Below are positions 800 to 24,810 of a stretch of 64,000 bases of DNA, piece after piece. The notes beneath the pieces are model-generated. The model saw only the letters and a program-made list of their open reading frames with translations, made no database searches and was not told where the DNA came from. Numbering within the stretch: position 1 is the first letter of the stretch; every line of letters begins with the position of its first letter. The stretch spans positions 896,001-960,000 of the forward strand of contig CAWBCJ010000029.1 of NCBI GenBank assembly GCA_963787255.1, in the 5' to 3' direction. This DNA comes from Methanobacteriota archaeon. GTDB taxonomy: Archaea > Methanobacteriota > Methanobacteria > Methanobacteriales > Methanobacteriaceae. The position numbers and the translations under genes were made by a program.

Positions 800-1153
800 A
801 TGAAATTAAAATATACTGGAATTGGAATCGTTATTTTAATATTGGGAATAGTTGCATTTTCTGGTTGTACTCAGAATCAGCAAACTACAACTGGGCAGAA
901 TGCCCCAAATACTGTAATTATCCAAAATTTCGCATTTAATCCAGATACTCTTACTGTTCCTGTGGGAACAACAGTTACATGGATAAACCAGGAATCTGCA
1001 CCACATGATGTTGTAAGTGATACAGGAGCTTTCAAAAGCCCAAGTTTAAACACAGGAGCAAATTATACATACACTTTTAACCAGGCAGGCGAATATCCTT
1101 ATCACTGTGGAATACATCCATCAATGAAAGCTAAAGTAATCGTCAATAAATGA
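800..1153 (+). CDS. Cupredoxin (amicyanin/plastocyanin-like) lipoprotein
   Basis: Signal peptide with lipobox-like FSGC; type-1 Cu ligands PHDV and YHCGIHPSM. Confidence 0.9.
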   Translation: MKLKYTGIGIVILILGIVAFSGCTQNQQTTTGQNAPNTVIIQNFAFNPDTLTVPVGTTVTWINQESAPHDVVSDTGAFKSPSLNTGANYTYTFNQAGEYPYHCGIHPSMKAKVIVNK

Positions 1154-1173
1154 ATTTTTTAAAGTAAGATAAA

Positions 1174-1563
1174 ATGTTAAGTGAGATAGCTTATTTTCCA
1201 ATATTTGGAAAGCCGTTGATACTTTATATGGGTGTTATCACTCTTCTTTCATTCGTTATCACGGCTTCTATCGGTTTGATGATTTTTAGAGGTAGATCAA
1301 TACCTTTTAAATGGCATCCAACAATGGCAGGTATTTCTATAACTATTGGGATAATTCACGGAATTTTGGGAATATCAACAGGAAGGCCATTTATAATTCT
1401 TCTGGGTATCATTACAATATCCCTATTTCTCAGCACTGCCTCAATAGGCTTAATGATTTTTAAAGGAAGGAATATACCATTTAAAATTCATCCTACAATG
1501 GCCAGTATTGCCATAATGGTAGGAATAATTCATGGAACTTTGGGAATATCAATTTATCTATAA
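1174..1563 (+). CDS. 4-TM membrane protein made of two 58-aa repeats, each with two His 14 residues apart (putative di-heme cytochrome b-like)
   Basis: Repeats GKP...TASIGLMIFRGR.IPFKWHPTMA...IIHG and GRP...TASIGLMIFKGR.IPFKIHPTMA...IIHG; 20 bp after the cupredoxin gene. Confidence 0.75.
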   Translation: MLSEIAYFPIFGKPLILYMGVITLLSFVITASIGLMIFRGRSIPFKWHPTMAGISITIGIIHGILGISTGRPFIILLGIITISLFLSTASIGLMIFKGRNIPFKIHPTMASIAIMVGIIHGTLGISIYL

Positions 1564-3157: not shown

Positions 3158-4606
3158 TTACAATACATGCCGTTTAAGGAGTACACCTTCGCTGTCATGT
3201 ATATCTACAAGTAAAGGAGATTCTCCGTTTATCATGTGAGTAGCACATGAGAGACATGGATCATAAGCTCTTACAATCATTTCAAGCTGATTTTTAAGCC
3301 CTTCAGATACTTCTTCGCCTTTAATCATGGCCTTTGCAGTTTCTCTTACACCTATATCCATTGAAAGGTTGTTTTGACCTGTTGAAACTATGAGATTTGC
3401 GCGGTTTATGTAACCTGCAGCATCTGTTTCATAATCGTGAATCAGAATTCCTCTTGTAGCTTCAATCATTCCAACGCCTCTTCTTGTTTCGCTGGATCCT
3501 TTTGCTTCTTCCCGGGTCATGAGAGTTTCTGAAAGACCTTGCCTTAAATCTGTTCCAGTAATTGAACCATCTTCAAGAAGCTGTACAGACCTTTCAGCTG
3601 CAAACATCAACTCAATTAAACGGGCATAATGGTATAGTAGAGCATTTTGGGCAATTCCATACTTATCTTTGTATTCGCCGAATAATTGGGAAGCTTTTTC
3701 AGTTGGAATGTTCTGTGCGATGTTCAATCTTGCAAGAGGCCCAACTCTGTAATTTCCTTCAGGGAATCCAATCTGTTTCAGGTACGGGAATTTGAGATAA
3801 GACCATGGCTGAACCTTTTCTTCGATGTAGTCTAAGTAATCGCTTGCTTCGAATTCGTAAACCGAATTACCGCCTTTGTCAATGACTTTAACAGGTGCAT
3901 CATAAAATTCTATATTTCCATTATTGCTTAAAGCACCGAAATGAGATTCAACAGGGCCTAAAAGTTCTATTGCTTCACTGTACTGTTCAAATAATGGTTT
4001 AGCTACTTCAACGCCCTTTTCTATAAGTCCTACGGCATCTTTAGCTTGTGATAGTAACTTTGATCGTTCTTCTTCTGTAATTCCTTTGGATTGACCGCCA
4101 GGTATAGCAGTTACAGGGCTGATTGGTTTTCCTCCAACTACGCTTGTTATATACTGTCCAATTTTTCGAGTATCTATTGCCATTTTTGCAAGCGCTGGGT
4201 CTTTTTTAAGGATACCTACAACGTTTCTGAGTGCAGGATCTGATTCCGGACCCATTACAAGATCAGGCGCCCCTAGGAAATAGAAATGAAGTGAATGTGA
4301 ATGGATGTATTGGCCTAAAAGCATAAGTTCTCTTAATTTTTGGGCAGTTTCTGGGGGCTGTAATCCAAATACCTGATCTGTAGCCTTAGCAGAAGCTAAA
4401 TGGTGCGCTGTTTGACATATGCCACATATACGTGGGGTAATTCGCGGTGCTTCTTCTACAGCAGCTCCCTCTAGAAATTTTTCAAAACCTCTTATTTCCA
4501 TTACGTGAAAGTGAGCATCTGAAACACTTCCAGAGTCATCTAATTGAACTGTGATTTTTGCGTGTCCTTCAATTCTGGTTACAGGGCTTATTTCAATATT
4601 TTTCAT
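3158..4606 (-). CDS. Group 3 [NiFe] hydrogenase large subunit, MvhA-like paralog
   Basis: TRIEGH, L1 RICGIC, HSHSLH, L2 DPCLSCATH plus a cleavable C-terminal extension; ATG 4606 after GGTGA. Confidence 0.93.
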
Positions 4607-4621
4607 AAATATCACCTTTAT

Positions 4622-5533
4622 TTATTTCTTGACCAGTTGAGGGATCAATGAAACCTGTTTTTCCTCCATTATGGTACTTCCAATTACAAATCCGTATATA
4701 ACATGCCCTATGTCATAAATCTGTTTTTCAACATCTTTTTCAGGCATCTTGGAAAGGTGAGCAATTCTTTTGATTACTCCATTATATAGATCGTGGCTTG
4801 GTTCTCTTAAAACATCCAGTGAAGGTCCTCCACAGCCATGACAGGGAATTCCAGCATCAGTACAGAGTGCACCGCATCTTCCAAGGGTTACTGAGCCTAA
4901 ACAAACGTATCCCTGGCTTAAGAAGCACTGTTGAGAGTCAGGATTTCCTTCTACTCTTCTATGGATTTTATCGAATTCTACGTGATCCATCCATCTTTGA
5001 CAATCTGCACAAACACTCTTTTTGGGAACATTTGGAGCTTCACCATTAATTAAAGGCAATAATATGTCTCCGGTTAATCTTTCCTTTGGAGGACAGCCAG
5101 GAATATAATAATCTACTTCAGTAAAGTCTCCTGCGGGATGAACAATAGGTAGAAGTTTTGGAACAACTTCTGAAGGCACGTCAGCTGATTCTGTACTTGG
5201 ATTATCTGAATATGTACGTGATGTTACTTCTTCAGGGCTGTATAAATCTGCCATTCCAGTTATACCGCCGTAACATGCGCATGTTCCGTATGCAATCAAT
5301 GTTTTTGATTTTTTCCTTAATTCCTCTAATCTTTCCTTGTTTTCTTCATTTCGAACAGATCCAGATACTATTGCTATATCAACATCTTCAGGAATTACTT
5401 TAGCATCAACTAATACGGGGCCATAAACTATTTCGGATTTTTCCAGTATCTGTAATAACTCTTCGTGTAAATCAAGAATCGATATTTCACAACCTGCACA
5501 ACTTGCAAGTGCTTCCATTGCAATTTTAACCAT
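4622..5533 (-). CDS. [NiFe] hydrogenase small subunit, MvhG-like paralog
   Basis: [40 protein letters not shown] and PCHGC FeS motifs. Confidence 0.92.
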
Positions 5534-6087
5534 TATTTACCACCCCATTTTATAGTCAGGGTTTTAAGGCAAGCATTCGGACCAACATGGTTTATATCCA
5601 GTTTTCCTTTGATGCTCATAACTTCCTCAACTGCACCAACCATGTATCCGTATAAAAGATAACATAATGGTCCTTTTTGAGGTAATCCTGTCCTTCGCAA
5701 TGTCTGTCTTACAACACAATCCATAAATAATAGTTGCACTACTGTTTCATCGCCTTTTTCAATTGTATATCCTTCCTGATTGGTTGGTTTCCACATCTCA
5801 AAATAAAATTCAATTCCAAGTATTTCGCTCAGTTCTTTCATGGCCTTTTCCAGGTTGTCTGTTTTTTCCATGAGCTTACCAGCTTCGTGTCCCATTCTTT
5901 TCCCTGCTTGGTAAACAATAGCATTAGCTCCACGGCCGGAAACCTGTTCCAGTGCACTAGACATGGAACCTACAAATTTCATTAAAACATGCAGTGCTTC
6001 TTCGTAATCGTCGATGTCACCACCTGTTTCTTTAGGAATTAATTCAGGTTTAAAATCCCCTCTTACATCTTCCCTTTCAATTTCCAT
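5533..6087 (-). CDS. V4R (4-vinyl reductase / hydrocarbon-binding) domain protein
   Basis: YQAGKRMG helix, then DC...[16 protein letters not shown]...NAC, typical of V4R; stop overlaps the small-subunit start. Confidence 0.8.
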
Positions 6088-6097
6088 TACAAATCCC

Positions 6098-6349
6098 TCA
6101 TATTATTTTACTTAAAGCCTTATTCACTTTTCTGTCAATGTAAAGCCTTTTAGCCACATGTATATCGTCATGTTCTAGCGCTTGGGAAGGGCAAATTTCG
6201 TGGCATGATAGACAACCCATGCAATCTGTTTCATTCACTACTACAGTTTTTCCATGTTCTTTATCCAGTTCATATACATCGTTTGGACAGTCTTCAACGC
6301 AAGATCCGCATCCTACACATGCATCTTCGTCAACTTTTATTTTTACCAT
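6098..6349 (-). CDS. 2x[4Fe-4S] ferredoxin with basic C-terminal extension
   Basis: [12 protein letters not shown] and [12 protein letters not shown]; ATG 6349 after a GGGGG RBS. Confidence 0.92.
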
Positions 6350-6426
6350 ATCAATCCCCCCGGATTTCCCTTTTTTCATTTTTTTGGAGGTTCTTAAAAT
6401 AATTGAACCTTTTTCTAAACATTACT

Positions 6427-22991: not shown

Positions 22992-24723
22992 TTATTCTAT
23001 ATTTTCAAATTTAATCCGGTATTTCATCAGATCTTCTATAATTTCACCGATACTTGAGATAGGGATTCTTTTTTGTTCTAGATTATCTCGGTTTCTTATA
23101 GTAACTTTATTGTCTTCCAATGAATCGTGGTCAACGGTTAGGGCGAAAGGAACCCCAATTTCATCAGCTCGAGCGTATCTTCTTCCAATGGTTCCTGAAG
23201 CGTCAAATTCGGCTATAAAACCTTTTTTCCTTAAATCATCCCTTATTTTAACTGCAATTTCTCTTAAACCGTCTTTGTTAACCAGAGGGAAAACGCTTAC
23301 ATCCACAGGAGCTATGTCTGCAGGAAGCTTGAAATATTCGCGCTTGTTTTCTTTATCCTCAGTAAAAGTATGTAAGAGCACTGAAAAGACTATACGGTCA
23401 ATACCGTATGATGGTTCGATGACGTGAGGAAATATCTTTTCTCCCCTTACACTTTCTTCTATATATTCAAAATTCACGTGTTCTGGGGTTAATTCGAAGG
23501 TTTTACCTTCTATTTCTATTTTGAACACACCTTCACTTTCAATAGCTTCTTTAACATCTTCTCCACTAATATCTTTAAGTTCTTTTAGTATTTTTGGAGC
23601 ATCGCTTTTAAATGATGGGCCGAATTTGCTCATGTTAGGTTTAACTGCCAGTTTTTTAATCTGTTTAGGTTCATCGTACTCAATAAAGACTCTCAAGTCT
23701 TCATTACTGTGCTCGGTGTGGGATTTAAGAATCGAAATCAGTTCTATCAGCAATACCAATTATTTCAACCCAGCCATATCTTTCGGTTTTTACCTCTACA
23801 TCCCAGCAATCAATTGCATAATGCGCCATTTCAGTAGGTAAATGCTGTCTGAACCTTATTACCTCATCAGGTATTCCCAGTTCCTTTAAAAACTTCCAAG
23901 CAAGGTACAGTTGATAAATAAGAACCTCACTTGAAACTGTTTTATTAGTTAATGCATCATTAACAGTTATTTCTATTGGTTCTCCTTCATCTATCTGAAT
24001 TTCAGCAGGATAAAGCTTGAGCACCTTATCTTGAATTTCAGAGAATTTTTGATGAGTTTTATCCTTTGGATCTACAAAAATCTCTGCTTCTGCTTGGGTA
24101 AATTCTCTGAGTCTTATAACTCCCTGTCTCGGTGAAATCTCATTTCTGTAAGCTTTACCGATTTGAACGACACCAAAGGGTAATTTACCTCTAAAGAATC
24201 TTAAAAGCCTCTTGAATGGTATAAATATTCCCTGTGCGGTTTCAGGTCGCATGTAACCTGTTTTTTTACCCTTTGCACCAATTAATGTTTGAAACATTAA
24301 ATTGTAATTCCATACACGGGTTAAACGGTTACCGCATTTAGGGCAGCATATTTTTTCAGAGTAAAGTATCTCTGTAAGCTCATCGTTGCTTAATCCTTCC
24401 ATATCTTTGTTTATCACTTCTTCAATGATGTGATCTGCCCTGTAAACTTCCAGACATTCTTTACATTCGGTCATTGGATCTGTAAAATGATCAACGTGTC
24501 CGGATGCTTTAAGTGCCTCTTCAGGCATTACTGTAGGTGATTCTATTTCGTAAAAGCCTTCTCTTACAATATAGTATTCTCTCCACTTGTTTATGATAGC
24601 ATTTTTTAGTATGGCACCAAGTGGGCCGTAATCATAAAATCCTGCAACACCTGCATAGATTTCAAATGAAGACCAGAGAAAACCTCTTTTTTTTGCAACA
24701 TTCATTACTTTATCATGTTTCAT
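22992..24723 (-). CDS. glyS: Glycine--tRNA ligase; +1 insertion at about 23730
   Basis: YDYGPLG, SGHVDHF, MRPETAQG, YRNEISPRQG, EPSYGIDR, GRRYARADEIG; removing one T gives ADRTDFDLKSH. Confidence 0.95.
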
Positions 24724-24810
24724 TAATATCATCTCAAATAATTATTCTTAAATATGAAAAATATAGAGCAATTAACGCTCTAAAAATCGAATTAAAATTA
24801 TAAATAAAAT

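Follow-up and report, generated by a model that had tools for sequence, protein, structure and literature searches.

A tandem two-helix membrane protein encoded beside a blue copper lipoprotein in a methanogen: a putative transmembrane dihaem electron conduit

We find that a methanogen gene directly downstream of a type-1 copper protein gene encodes a 129-aa membrane protein which, on sequence comparison, is a tandem-fused member of an undescribed family of proteins with two transmembrane helices per unit (the 2-TM family). What we observe is an internal repeat, the conservation of a few residues across the family, the topology logic, linkage to redox genes, fusions to other domains and a weak family resemblance to known haem proteins. 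We think it rather probable, with clear reservations, that the protein is a minimal MsrQ-like transmembrane dihaem conduit feeding the surface cupredoxin. No description of the 2-TM family or of the gene pair was found in the literature, in a search that covered few subscription journals.

The gene pair and the internal repeat

Both genes lie on the forward strand of the window, by which we mean the whole stretch of 64,000 nucleotides that was analysed. Their features are as follows.

800..1153, + strand: gene for a 117-aa type-1 (blue) copper protein, amicyanin-like (Pfam Cupredoxin_1 and Copper-bind; amicyanin 2qdv)
800..868, + strand: signal peptide, ending in the lipobox-like FSGC (Cys23), as read from the sequence
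869..910, + strand: Gln/Thr-rich linker from the anchor to the copper domain, TQNQQTTTGQNAPN, from the sequence
1004..1126, + strand: predicted copper ligand codons, His69 (1004-1006), Cys103 (1106-1108), His106 (1115-1117) and Met109 (1124-1126), from the amicyanin alignment
1154..1173, + strand: 20-bp spacer between the two genes, from the ORF coordinates
1174..1563, + strand: gene for the four-helix membrane protein of 129 aa, made of two tandem copies of the 2-TM unit and a putative dihaem electron conduit, from the ORF and alignments
1174..1386, + strand: repeat unit 1, residues 1-71, with an N-terminal FGKP motif, TM1 at about 14-37 (Gly20, Gly34), a basic loop at 38-47 and TM2 at about 48-69, from alignments
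1315..1359, + strand: His48 (1315-1317) and His62 (1357-1359), 14 residues apart on TM2, from H-x13-H conservation
1387..1560, + strand: repeat unit 2, residues 72-129, with TM3 (Gly78, Gly92), a basic loop and TM4, from the internal repeat
1489..1533, + strand: His106 (1489-1491) and His120 (1531-1533) on TM4, the unit-2 equivalent of the TM2 pair, from the tandem-form alignment

The 117-aa protein scores well above the curated Pfam cut-offs of Cupredoxin_1 (PF13473; 2.4e-14, 53.6 bits against 27) and Copper-bind (PF00127; 2e-12, 47.8 bits against 21.2), and it aligns with amicyanin 2qdv (3.5e-15) such that His69, Cys103, His106 and Met109 fall on four positions which we take to be the copper ligands of amicyanin. 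With these profile matches and the complete His-Cys-His-Met set, the ORF at 800-1153 is assigned by sequence to the type-1 blue copper family. In 51 aligned cupredoxins H69 never varies, and at C103, H106 and M109 conservation is 90% or more. The same holds for Gly22, at least 90% conserved, with GC at that site in most of the rows shown; the protein is probably attached by a lipid anchor to the outer face of the membrane. Relatives in Methanoregula carry longer, Pro/Thr-rich linkers at the position of the Gln/Thr-rich linker. With amicyanin and plastocyanin the 117-aa protein shares the fold family, all four copper ligands and the short C-x2-H-x2-M loop; unlike amicyanin it reaches only 59.3 bits where the equivalog cut-off is 110.2, and unlike both it is lipobox-type, archaeal and without a methylamine dehydrogenase context, its conserved partner being the 2-TM family. 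The sequence-only reading, which had placed an exported copper lipoprotein 20 bp upstream of the membrane protein gene, is borne out by the gap, the profiles and the lipobox-like motif.

The short spacer suggests that the two genes form one operon. Corresponding spacers measure 19-31 bp among relatives from Methanobacteriaceae, and mostly 0-7 bp in the other loci. Rfam and tRNA scans of the window found nothing. Next to the pair there is no gene for a cytoplasmic donor, the neighbours being RFC, a Roadblock-domain protein and a hydrogenase. The gene content of the window includes TfrB, a VhuA/G-like hydrogenase and NpdG, which agrees with an origin in Methanobacteriaceae, as do the nearest homologues.

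The 129-aa protein had been described, from the letters alone, as two 58-aa repeats with a 174-bp period, and this is upheld by comparison of the protein with itself, where 38 of 71 residues are identical when the sequence is shifted by 58 aa; over 5000 shuffles that preserved composition, the count at the best offset averaged 14.7 (sd 1.6) and never exceeded 22. In the DNA, 133 of 213 bases (62%) match at an offset of 174 nt, and a repeat search paired 1251-1378 with 1425-1552 at 75% identity and a spacing of 174. Tandem Repeats Finder did not report the 174-nt repeat, because the repeat is too diverged. All the residues to which attention had been drawn are present, with His48, His62, His106 and His120 the sole His of the protein and Gly at 20, 34, 78 and 92. 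Read from the alignment, the tandem form has four hydrophobic helices and the single form has two. On a helical wheel His48 and His62 share one face with the small residues at 52, 55, 59 and 66, at angles within ±40 degrees. His48 is right at the beginning of TM2, a shallow position for a haem ligand.

The 2-TM family and its genomic partners

The homologues of the 129-aa protein (n = 57) comprise 18 tandem forms, 37 single units and 2 fragments, so that the single-repeat versions looked for do exist; a single unit of 70-75 aa is in fact the commonest form of the family. An exhaustive profile search returned 424 representatives at E ≤ 1e-3, with 172 at the stricter E ≤ 1e-10, and no Pfam or NCBIfam model covers the family.

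Conservation of the His pair in homologues, a prediction of the sequence-only reading, was found: of 148 representatives, 139 carry H-x13-H and a further 2 carry H-x13-M, and several of the 7 that have neither seem truncated or frameshifted. We use 139/148 as the unbiased count, since in alignments A4 and A6 the invariance of the His holds by construction, the 9 representatives without H-x13-H having been dropped from them along with all but four of those outside 60-95 aa. The Gly pair fared less evenly in the family alignment: Gly20 is conserved in 124 of 125, but the position of Gly34 holds Gly in no more than 56 of 123, Pro taking it in 24 and Ala in 22. Pro14 (117/125), Ala52 (112/125) and Ala or Gly at position 59 (117/125) are also well conserved. 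In the tandem forms His106 and His120 are invariant (28/28 proteins). A paralogous tandem group carries Met62 in place of His, in L072 as well as in all 10 rows of this kind in alignment A3 (28 rows), and retains His48, His106 and His120; His and Met are the two classical axial ligands of haem. These Met62 paralogues adjoin cytoplasmic SnoaL-like genes and not redox partners.

Three features would place both termini of the unit outside the cell: the basic TM1-TM2 loop, with a mean of 3.08 Lys+Arg compared to 0.71 in the N-terminal segment; the C-terminal fusions to a CxxCH cytochrome c, full-length in P0095, P0105 and P0117 and truncated in P0158; and a form with an N-terminal lipobox. The tandem fusion apparently arose at least three times from duplication of a 2-TM half, in agreement with the proposal that the four-helix form was made in this way. 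Such repeated fusion fits a dimer of units as the working form. A search for longer fused forms found none, which is weak evidence. A seeming fusion of cupredoxin and 2-TM unit in L018 was rejected as a one-base frameshift; the other frame restores a normal cupredoxin end (...MQGTITVGA and a stop). The L018 contig nests among Methanoregula loci.

Neighbouring genes were compared in 80 loci, retrieved with a single peptide pattern and thus a part of the family: 21 from Methanobacteriaceae, 26 from Methanoregulaceae/Methanomicrobiales, 15 from CPR and unclassified bacteria, 13 from DPANN and Altiarchaeota, and 5 others. Locus L004 belongs to Methanobacterium sp. MBAC-LM (NZ_CP187261.1). A type-1 cupredoxin gene is directly upstream of the 2-TM gene in 47 of these and within 1.5 kb in 56, and this linkage spans Methanobacteriaceae, Methanoregulaceae, CPR bacteria and DPANN archaea, so that the gene pair is conserved across phyla, as a search for linked homologues had been expected to show. 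Loci lacking a cupredoxin often have a cytochrome b5 lipoprotein, a molybdoenzyme resembling MsrP, an Fe-S/FMN reductase or a reductase resembling Fre next to the 2-TM gene. Cytochrome b5 lipoproteins with the HPGG motif intact are directly upstream in 4 of the 80 loci. Within 1.5 kb there is a Cys-rich flavoprotein of the FMN_red type in 11 loci and a Fre/FNR-like reductase in 2. Any redox partner is found in 65 of the loci; in 15 none is present within 1.5 kb. The loci from Methanoregula have housekeeping genes as neighbours. In L026 and L044 the order is rubrerythrin, superoxide reductase, cytochrome b5, the 2-TM gene, the MsrP-like molybdoenzyme and MsrB, followed in L026 by MsrA and a Fre-like reductase and in L044 by an FAD/NAD-binding ORF. 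Matches to a rubredoxin seed in L026, L044 and L052 were not counted as separate partners, as they may be the rubredoxin-like tail of rubrerythrin.

Resemblance to known haem proteins

When 125 family members were matched to Pfam, Ferric_reduct (PF01794, the haem domain of MsrQ and NOX) gave weak matches in 38 at E ≤ 0.1, the best at 1.4e-5, and the next unrelated family was matched by 5; Ni_hydr_CYTB and DUF4079 were each matched by 3 and DUF4405 by 2. These figures come from the 25 most-matched of 67 families. Where bits are shown, no member attains the curated cut-off of any haem-protein family: for Ferric_reduct, with its cut-off of 28 bits, the values are 22.9 (P0158) and 18.0, and the 129-aa protein itself has no Ferric_reduct match; against the eukaryotic family Cytochrom_B561 (PF03188) it scores 16.2 bits (E 0.013), below the cut-off of 23. 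The family HMM sets its two His on R77/H91 and H151/H164 of E. coli MsrQ and on H138/H152 of YodB, although these alignments were scored against two sequences and a model with two invariant His tends to find His pairs anyway. Alignment by hhalign to the single MsrQ sequence was weak (P 0.038), as was that to the single YodB sequence. A homologue search with MsrQ listed relatives of 77% identity or more, too close to one another for a diverse FRD profile. R77 as an aligned site fits the Arg that stands in place of the first canonical His in YedZ/STEAP (PMC3591440).

PDB sequence searches with the 129-aa protein, the family profile and P0126 gave nothing relevant. The Atlas model of P0014, a homologue with 67% identity, is confident (pTM 0.81); its feature leads are Cytochrom_B561 (0.83), DUF4079 (0.82) and Ferric_reduct (0.80), all below the 0.9 line, and beyond its own family the nearest fold is DUF2231 (PF09990; TM 0.77 over 124 residues), with Cyt-b5-DUF2231 fusions at 0.76. 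DUF2231 is likewise an uncharacterised four-helix membrane domain, and its cytochrome b5 fusions parallel the cytochrome b5 genes adjacent to some 2-TM genes; on the other hand it is absent from the 25 most-matched Pfam families, and four-helix bundles match easily. We did not find its function addressed in the literature searched.

By these comparisons the closest kin of the 2-TM family would be of the MsrQ/FRD type and not the cytochrome b of bc1. Kinship to the eight-helix cytochrome b of bc1/b6f, with which the protein had been compared at the outset, did not hold up: the spacing of the His is the only pattern common to both, and PF00033 and PF13631 are absent from the matches of the 129-aa protein and from the 25 most-matched of the 67 families. 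Like bc1/b6f cytochrome b and the bacterial b561 proteins (CybB/YodB, PF01292), the 2-TM family carries His pairs, spaced by about 14 residues, on every other helix of a predicted four-helix bundle, and cytochrome b has Gly on the neighbouring helices; unlike them, the 2-TM family has no quinone sites or further helices, and the similarity is below every cut-off. To our knowledge the hosts of the family have no quinones.

MsrQ offers the nearer parallel. It is a membrane b-type cytochrome through which electrons pass from a flavin reductase in the cytoplasm to a soluble redox protein on the outer side (PMC5676040, PMC8238504). As msrQ adjoins msrP in the MsrQ/MsrP/Fre system of E. coli, so the 2-TM gene adjoins an MsrP-like gene in L026 and L044, and the L026 locus encodes a Fre-like reductase and L044 the FAD/NAD-binding ORF. 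In contrast, MsrQ is one chain with six TM helices and three of the four canonical His (PMC3591440), whereas a unit of the 2-TM family has two helices and the tandem form has four, with all four His; the family's usual putative acceptor is a cupredoxin and not a molybdoenzyme.

In the wider FRD superfamily His101/115 lie on TM3 and His209/222 on TM5, in NOX2 numbering (PMC3591440, PMC5676040). Two His pairs 13-14 apart on two parallel helices are also found here; six helices with the motifs on helices 3 and 5 are not. The NOX/FRE/STEAP core shares these pairs on two parallel helices and spans the membrane with two haems, and a separate Fre/FNR-like gene in some 2-TM loci mirrors the dehydrogenase domain of NOX; unlike it, the 2-TM family has no flanking helices and no fused FAD/NADPH domain, and would consist of two identical halves instead of one asymmetric six-helix domain. 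The 2-TM family is also common in archaea, whereas ancient archaeal copies of the FRD superfamily were judged likely absent (PMC3591440).

The methanogen group of the host is classically described as having no cytochromes, and we know of no haem synthesis in CPR or DPANN. AhbABCD was counted in none of 102 Methanobacteriales genomes and none of 32 from Methanomicrobiales (PMC8351635). On that count for Methanobacteriales the cofactor of the 129-aa protein would be scavenged haem, or something else, and most hosts of the family would likewise need to scavenge haem.

A proposed electron conduit and its alternatives

From here on we infer haem as the cofactor, the path of the electrons, their direction and the physiological role. 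We propose that two units, as two chains or as one tandem chain, would assemble into a bundle of four helices whose N and C termini lie outside the cell, and in which TM2 and TM4 would give two His each to hold two bis-His b-type haems. One haem, between His48 and His106, would lie near the cytoplasmic face and the other, between His62 and His120, near the outer face, with Gly20/Gly78 at the depth of the outer His pair and Gly34/Gly92 at that of the inner. The bundle would pass single electrons from a cytoplasmic reductase, for which the Fe-S/FMN reductase or the Fre-like NAD(P)H-flavin reductase of relatives is a candidate, to the lipid-anchored blue copper protein whose gene lies 20 bp upstream. 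Such a design would be a half-size relative of the haem core of MsrQ and the NOX-type ferric reductases and could work as MsrQ does with Fre. Type-1 copper sites usually have a high potential, near +200 to +400 mV, and for this reason electrons would likely flow from inside to outside. A likely role would be to supply reducing power at the surface for oxidative-stress repair, detoxification or metal reduction.

The same module could instead run in reverse, the surface cupredoxin taking electrons from outside (reduced minerals, humics, a partner cell or a cathode) and the bundle handing them to cytoplasmic acceptors, as a route of extracellular electron uptake for methanogens without cytochromes. 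The architecture is symmetric as to direction, the bins of the hosts derive from peat, fen, soil and groundwater, several DPANN/CPR loci adjoin detoxifying enzymes that consume electrons (rubrerythrin, superoxide reductase and rubredoxin-like genes), and, according to 10.1101/458091, citing Holmes et al. 2018, membrane-bound cupredoxins of Methanosarcina barkeri are more highly expressed in direct interspecies electron transfer. We consider uptake unlikely, however, as transfer from type-1 copper at such potentials to flavins, rubredoxin or the carriers of methanogenesis would be uphill, and the adjacent NAD(P)H/FMN reductases and outside MsrP-like enzyme fit outward flow. Nor do we regard it as likely that the His and Met bind copper ions, to be delivered to the exported apo-cupredoxin or imported in the manner of CopC/CopD. 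The commonest partner is indeed a copper protein (the 56 loci noted above), His and Met are also copper ligands, and members from Methanobacteriaceae carry an H-P-T-M motif; but the Met following His48 is not conserved (of 125 members, 45 have Leu at position 51, 33 have Met and 21 have Phe), cytochrome b5, the cytochrome c fusions, the MsrP-like enzyme and the flavin reductases need no copper, and no CopD or other copper-transporter match is among the 25 most-matched of the 67 families in the 125 members.

The His pairs could also hold scavenged haem that is moved or stored in the membrane for extracytoplasmic haem proteins. Cytochrome c maturation proteins have transmembrane His pairs which those of the 2-TM family resemble, certain members have a cytochrome c fusion or a cytochrome b5 lipoprotein as neighbour, and the hosts seem to be haem auxotrophs. 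Yet by far the commonest partner is a copper protein free of haem, the adjacent NAD(P)H/FMN reductases point to electron flow, and neither a WWD-type motif nor likeness to Ccm/Ccs appears among the 25 most-matched of the 67 families, and we find haem handling quite improbable. A small membrane protein outside redox chemistry altogether, an anchor or scaffold for surface proteins or a holin-like protein with a merely structural His pattern, seems to us very improbable. In its favour, the 129-aa protein matches Phage_holin_5_1 exactly at the curated cut-off (22.4 bits, E 1.7e-4) and has a weak PHROGs match of unknown function (1.1e-4), but one would not expect a mere anchor to keep, in nearly all representatives, a pair of polar His that lie buried in a membrane helix among small residues of the same face, and the exchange of His for Met at position 62 fits a metal ligand. 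The holin assignment itself (phage holin Hol118 family, PF06946) was rejected: it is matched by 1 of the 125 members compared to 38 for Ferric_reduct, the annotation of the window shows no phage genes, and PHROGs gave no holin family.

Returning to the outward dihaem conduit, we suggest a wider reading, tentatively and with less than even confidence, namely that 'cytochrome-free' methanogens (Methanobacteriaceae and Methanoregulaceae) and many CPR and DPANN may have a 72-aa two-helix cytochrome b, dimerised or in tandem around two scavenged haems, which would export electrons to surface proteins of copper, haem or molybdenum. The unit might then be a free-standing half of the four-helix core of MsrQ/NOX/STEAP and a living model of how such wires originated by duplication.

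We know of no transmembrane electron route for Methanobacterium, Methanoregula, CPR or DPANN, and none was found in the literature searched; if our reading is true, the family would provide a very small and easily expressed candidate for electron exit, and possibly entry, in these organisms. If haem binding is true, the textbook division of methanogens by presence or absence of cytochromes would call for a footnote, and organisms without a haem pathway would be using scavenged haem in a dedicated membrane wire. A natural dihaem bundle of 72 residues would, if true, be relevant to the design of haem maquettes and to the origin of NOX/MsrQ-type domains. The conserved neighbours suggest oxidative-stress repair at the surface, which bears on how strict anaerobes survive pulses of oxygen in soils and peat.

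The gene pair and the two-helix family

The gene pair consists of two ORFs in the same orientation, separated by 20 bp:

800-1153, + strand: ORF, cupredoxin gene, 117 aa
1174-1563, + strand: ORF, four-helix membrane protein gene, 129 aa

Shifted by 58 residues, the membrane protein is identical to itself at 38 of 71 positions; the best offsets in 5000 shuffles averaged 14.7 identities and never exceeded 22. The repeat also shows in the DNA, where 1251-1378 and 1425-1552, spaced by 174, share 75% identity. Its only histidines are His48, His62, His106 and His120, and glycines are present at positions 20, 34, 78 and 92. The sequence-only reading had described the ORFs, the repeat and the His and Gly positions in this way, and our ORF, shuffle, residue and DNA-repeat analyses bear it out.

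No Pfam or NCBIfam model files the 129-aa protein. It belongs to an unnamed family; the basic form there is only half as long and consists of a single unit with two transmembrane helices (2-TM). A word-indexed search returned 57 homologues, namely 18 tandem forms (129–133 aa), two fragments and 37 single units (71–78 aa). When 1.84 billion representatives were searched with a single-unit profile, 424 matched at E<=1e-3 and 172 at E<=1e-10, mostly proteins of 70–75 aa. Among the representatives listed (P0058–P0205), 139 of 148 carry H-x13-H and two carry H-x13-M; the other seven have neither, and several of these look truncated or frameshifted. Nine representatives without H-x13-H were left out of the family alignment before conservation was counted per position, and in the remainder Gly20 (124/125, numbered as in the window protein), Pro14 (117/125), Gly12 (113/123), Ala52 (112/125) and Thr30 (101/125) are conserved, while position 34 is Gly in only 56/123 and Gly, Pro or Ala in 102/123. 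Drawn as a helical wheel, TM2 has residues 48, 52, 55, 59, 62 and 66 within +/-40 degrees of one another's face, where both His are joined by small residues, and TM1 residues 20, 23, 27, 30, 31 and 34 share a similar helix face.

Lys plus Arg average 3.08 in the inter-helix loop versus 0.71 in the N-terminal segment, so by the positive-inside rule the loop is predicted to be cytoplasmic and both ends of the unit outside. Fusions are consistent with outside termini: some members have a C-terminal cytochrome c, the maturation of which occurs outside the cytoplasm, and one form has a lipobox signal ahead of the unit. Given this topology, TM2 would carry His48 at its cytoplasmic end and His62 six residues short of its outer end, while on TM1 Gly20 would also be six residues short of the outer end and Gly34 close to the inner one; judged from these residue numbers, each Gly would therefore sit at the depth of one His.

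The product of ORF 800-1153 matches Cupredoxin_1 and Copper-bind, both above their cut-offs, and its best solved relative is amicyanin (3.5e-15), on whose copper ligands His69, Cys103, His106 and Met109 align, each invariant or at least 90% conserved among 51 cupredoxin relatives. Because its N-terminus is a hydrophobic signal up to FSGC followed by a Gln/Thr-rich linker, the product reads as a putative lipid-anchored blue copper protein of the outer face.

Genomic neighbours, fusions and duplications

One contig scan with one peptide pattern gave 80 loci (L-numbers), a sample covering part of the family only.

Loci carrying the 2-TM family, grouped by record title
Methanobacteriaceae and kin: 21 loci
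Methanoregulaceae / Methanomicrobiales: 26 loci
CPR or unclassified bacteria: 15 loci
DPANN or Altiarchaeota: 13 loci
'Methanosarcinales' bins: 3 loci
Actinomycetota bin: 1 locus
Gammaproteobacteria bin: 1 locus

A same-strand cupredoxin gene ends 0–34 bp upstream of the 2-TM gene in 47/80 loci, and a cupredoxin lies within 1.5 kb in 56/80. Four loci instead have, directly upstream, a cytochrome b5 lipoprotein whose HPGG motif is intact. Within 1.5 kb we also found a Cys-rich FMN_red-type flavoprotein in 11 loci and a Fre/FNR-like reductase in two; the flavoprotein is often accompanied in its gene string by a cupredoxin and by a small rubredoxin-like ORF or Cys-rich DUF2769 protein. In all, 65/80 loci have some redox partner within this distance and 15/80 have none; for the window's genome, no cytoplasmic electron donor was identified among the neighbours of the gene pair. 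In L026 and L044 the order is rubrerythrin, superoxide reductase, cytochrome b5, the 2-TM gene, a lipobox MsrP-like molybdoenzyme and MsrB, followed in L026 by MsrA and a Fre-like NAD(P)H-flavin reductase and in L044 by an FAD/NAD-binding ORF. Other neighbours in Methanoregula and the window's clade (helicase, thermosome, RFC, a Roadblock protein, hydrogenase) are housekeeping or merely syntenic.

Small (~73 aa) Cys-rich DUF2769 proteins recur in CPR bacteria (L013, L022, L025, L029, L043, L072 and L078), where their genes have the FMN reductase on one side and the 2-TM or cupredoxin gene on the other; they might serve the same chain by carrying metal or Fe-S. An FAD-dependent oxidoreductase with a fused Rieske [2Fe-2S] domain (L035:6263-7741) comes after the 2-TM gene on a Roizmanbacteria chromosome, a possible further redox partner that occurs once. 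The units and gene order of the 'Methanosarcinales' bins L026 and L037 group with Nanoarchaeia (L044, L027, L063) and not with methanogens; both may be misbinned DPANN contigs.

The C-terminal cytochrome c domain (CxxCH) is found in P0095, P0105 and P0117 (175–177 aa) and in the truncated P0158. In P0126 and P0183 the unit stands behind an N-terminal domain of ~130 aa without assigned family, for which neither PDB nor NCBIfam gave a match and a weak likeness to Desulfoferrodoxin (E 0.12) is a lead only. P0126 opens with a hydrophobic signal-like segment; P0183 has none, and its N-terminus may be cut short. An apparent cupredoxin–2-TM fusion in L018 was rejected, as a one-base insertion at L018:5900-6020 merges the two frames. 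This contig, binned as Actinomycetota, has its unit at zero branch length among Methanoregula units in the tree and is probably mis-binned.

A quick unit tree, built on 72 columns and with SH-aLRT as its only support measure, places the C-halves of the window's tandem group as a clade (99) within the single units of Methanobacteriaceae; in a second tandem group the two halves come out as sister clades (95), and those of P0149 as sisters (88). These placements indicate that tandem fusion took place at least three times, which would be expected of units that always function in pairs. The second group, a paralogue group in Methanobacteriaceae (L048, L065, L066, L067, L071–L074; P0018, P0022, P0060), has no cupredoxin linkage. 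It carries Met62 in 10/10 such rows of a 28-row alignment and in L072, and keeps the other three His. His and Met are the classical axial ligands of haem, so the replacement exchanges one for the other; Met for His62 occurs only in unit 1 of this group, an asymmetry possible only after fusion. A cytoplasmic SnoaL-like gene lies directly upstream of the Met62 paralogue in L066, L073 and L074, and in L067 an FMN reductase is divergently transcribed from it.

Elsewhere in the window, a 417-aa protein (1640-2893, -) has a Roadblock/LC7 domain (3.7e-7) at its N-terminus and a long central part that is rich in Glu and very acidic; six Methanobacteriaceae loci conserve it downstream of the gene pair. 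A divergent [NiFe] hydrogenase pair (3161-6379, -), made up of a VhuG-like subunit and a VhuA-like one that scores 454 bits (cut-off 800), is followed by a 184-aa protein without clear family and a small ferredoxin; a NiFe hydrogenase pair has a similar place in six related Methanobacteriaceae loci, which may be plain synteny. The glycine-tRNA ligase gene (22995-24732, -) is split by a frameshift, real or an assembly error, into two overlapping ORFs, the upstream frame stopping right after ...GIADRTDFDS:

23728-24732, - strand: glycine-tRNA ligase ORF, TIGR00389 residues 2-329
22995-23759, - strand: glycine-tRNA ligase ORF, TIGR00389 residues 330-563

Possible distant kinship with dihaem cytochromes, and haem supply

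When 125 family members were scanned singly against Pfam at E<=0.1, Ferric_reduct was matched by 38 (best 1.4e-5) and the next unrelated family by five. Ni_hydr_CYTB (3/125), DUF4079 (3/125) and DUF4405 (2/125) were also hit, and these four presumably form one Pfam clan of two-haem cytochromes. The Ferric_reduct profile is covered by residues 47-161 of E. coli MsrQ. On MsrQ, the family HMM gives two in-register alignments, its His falling on R77/H91 and on H151/H164, and in YodB its His match H138/H152. Statistical support for these alignments is weak, as they were scored against two sequences only, and the two invariant His of the HMM favour finding His pairs. An hhalign comparison with MsrQ was likewise weak (P 0.038). 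The Atlas model of P0014, 67% identical to the window protein, is confident (pTM 0.81), its feature leads Cytochrom_B561, DUF4079 and Ferric_reduct stand at 0.80–0.83, below the 0.9 line, and its nearest fold outside its own family is DUF2231, including cytochrome b5-DUF2231 fusions (TM 0.76–0.77). MsrQ R77 under a family His fits the Arg that an earlier study reports in place of the first canonical His in YedZ/STEAP (PMC3591440).

No haem gene is annotated in the 64-kb window. Johnson et al. (PMC8351635) report AhbABCD in 0/102 Methanobacteriales, 0/32 Methanomicrobiales and 114/132 Methanosarcinales genomes, VhoC and HdrE only in haem makers, and KatG homologues in 13/102 Methanobacteriales; haem auxotrophy is their proposal. 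Their screen relied on VhoC/HdrE models and would have missed the 2-TM family. Cytochrome b5 genes with intact ligand motifs adjoin the family in DPANN loci, which shows that at least some hosts handle haem.

A putative transmembrane redox module

Judged from sequence, a transmembrane redox module with haem is the likeliest mechanism, and we consider it reasonably probable. Two units would pair into a bundle of four helices with two bis-His haems, one inner and one outer. The inner haem would be reduced by a cytoplasmic flavoprotein, and the outer haem would reduce the tethered cupredoxin, from which single electrons would pass to surface targets. Rival explanations are that electrons flow in reverse, being taken up from outside, that the membrane protein handles copper or haem, or that it is a plain anchor or holin. 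The weakest step of the redox module is its physiological role, on which we are only tentative: rubrerythrin, superoxide reductase, MsrA/B and MsrP-like neighbours suggest surface repair or detoxification, and metal reduction, as in FRE/STEAP, is an alternative.

L026 and L044 mirror E. coli msrP-msrQ, with the 2-TM gene in the msrQ position; Fre is the electron donor of the E. coli system, according to PMC5676040. We propose that the 2-TM family works like both MsrQ-Fre-MsrP and the NOX haem core, although profile score and helix number place it outside the MsrQ and NOX-type families. A literature search of partial coverage found no description of the family. On present sequence comparisons, the most fitting description is a novel, half-size version of the dihaem transmembrane cytochrome b design, for which a cupredoxin would be the usual acceptor.
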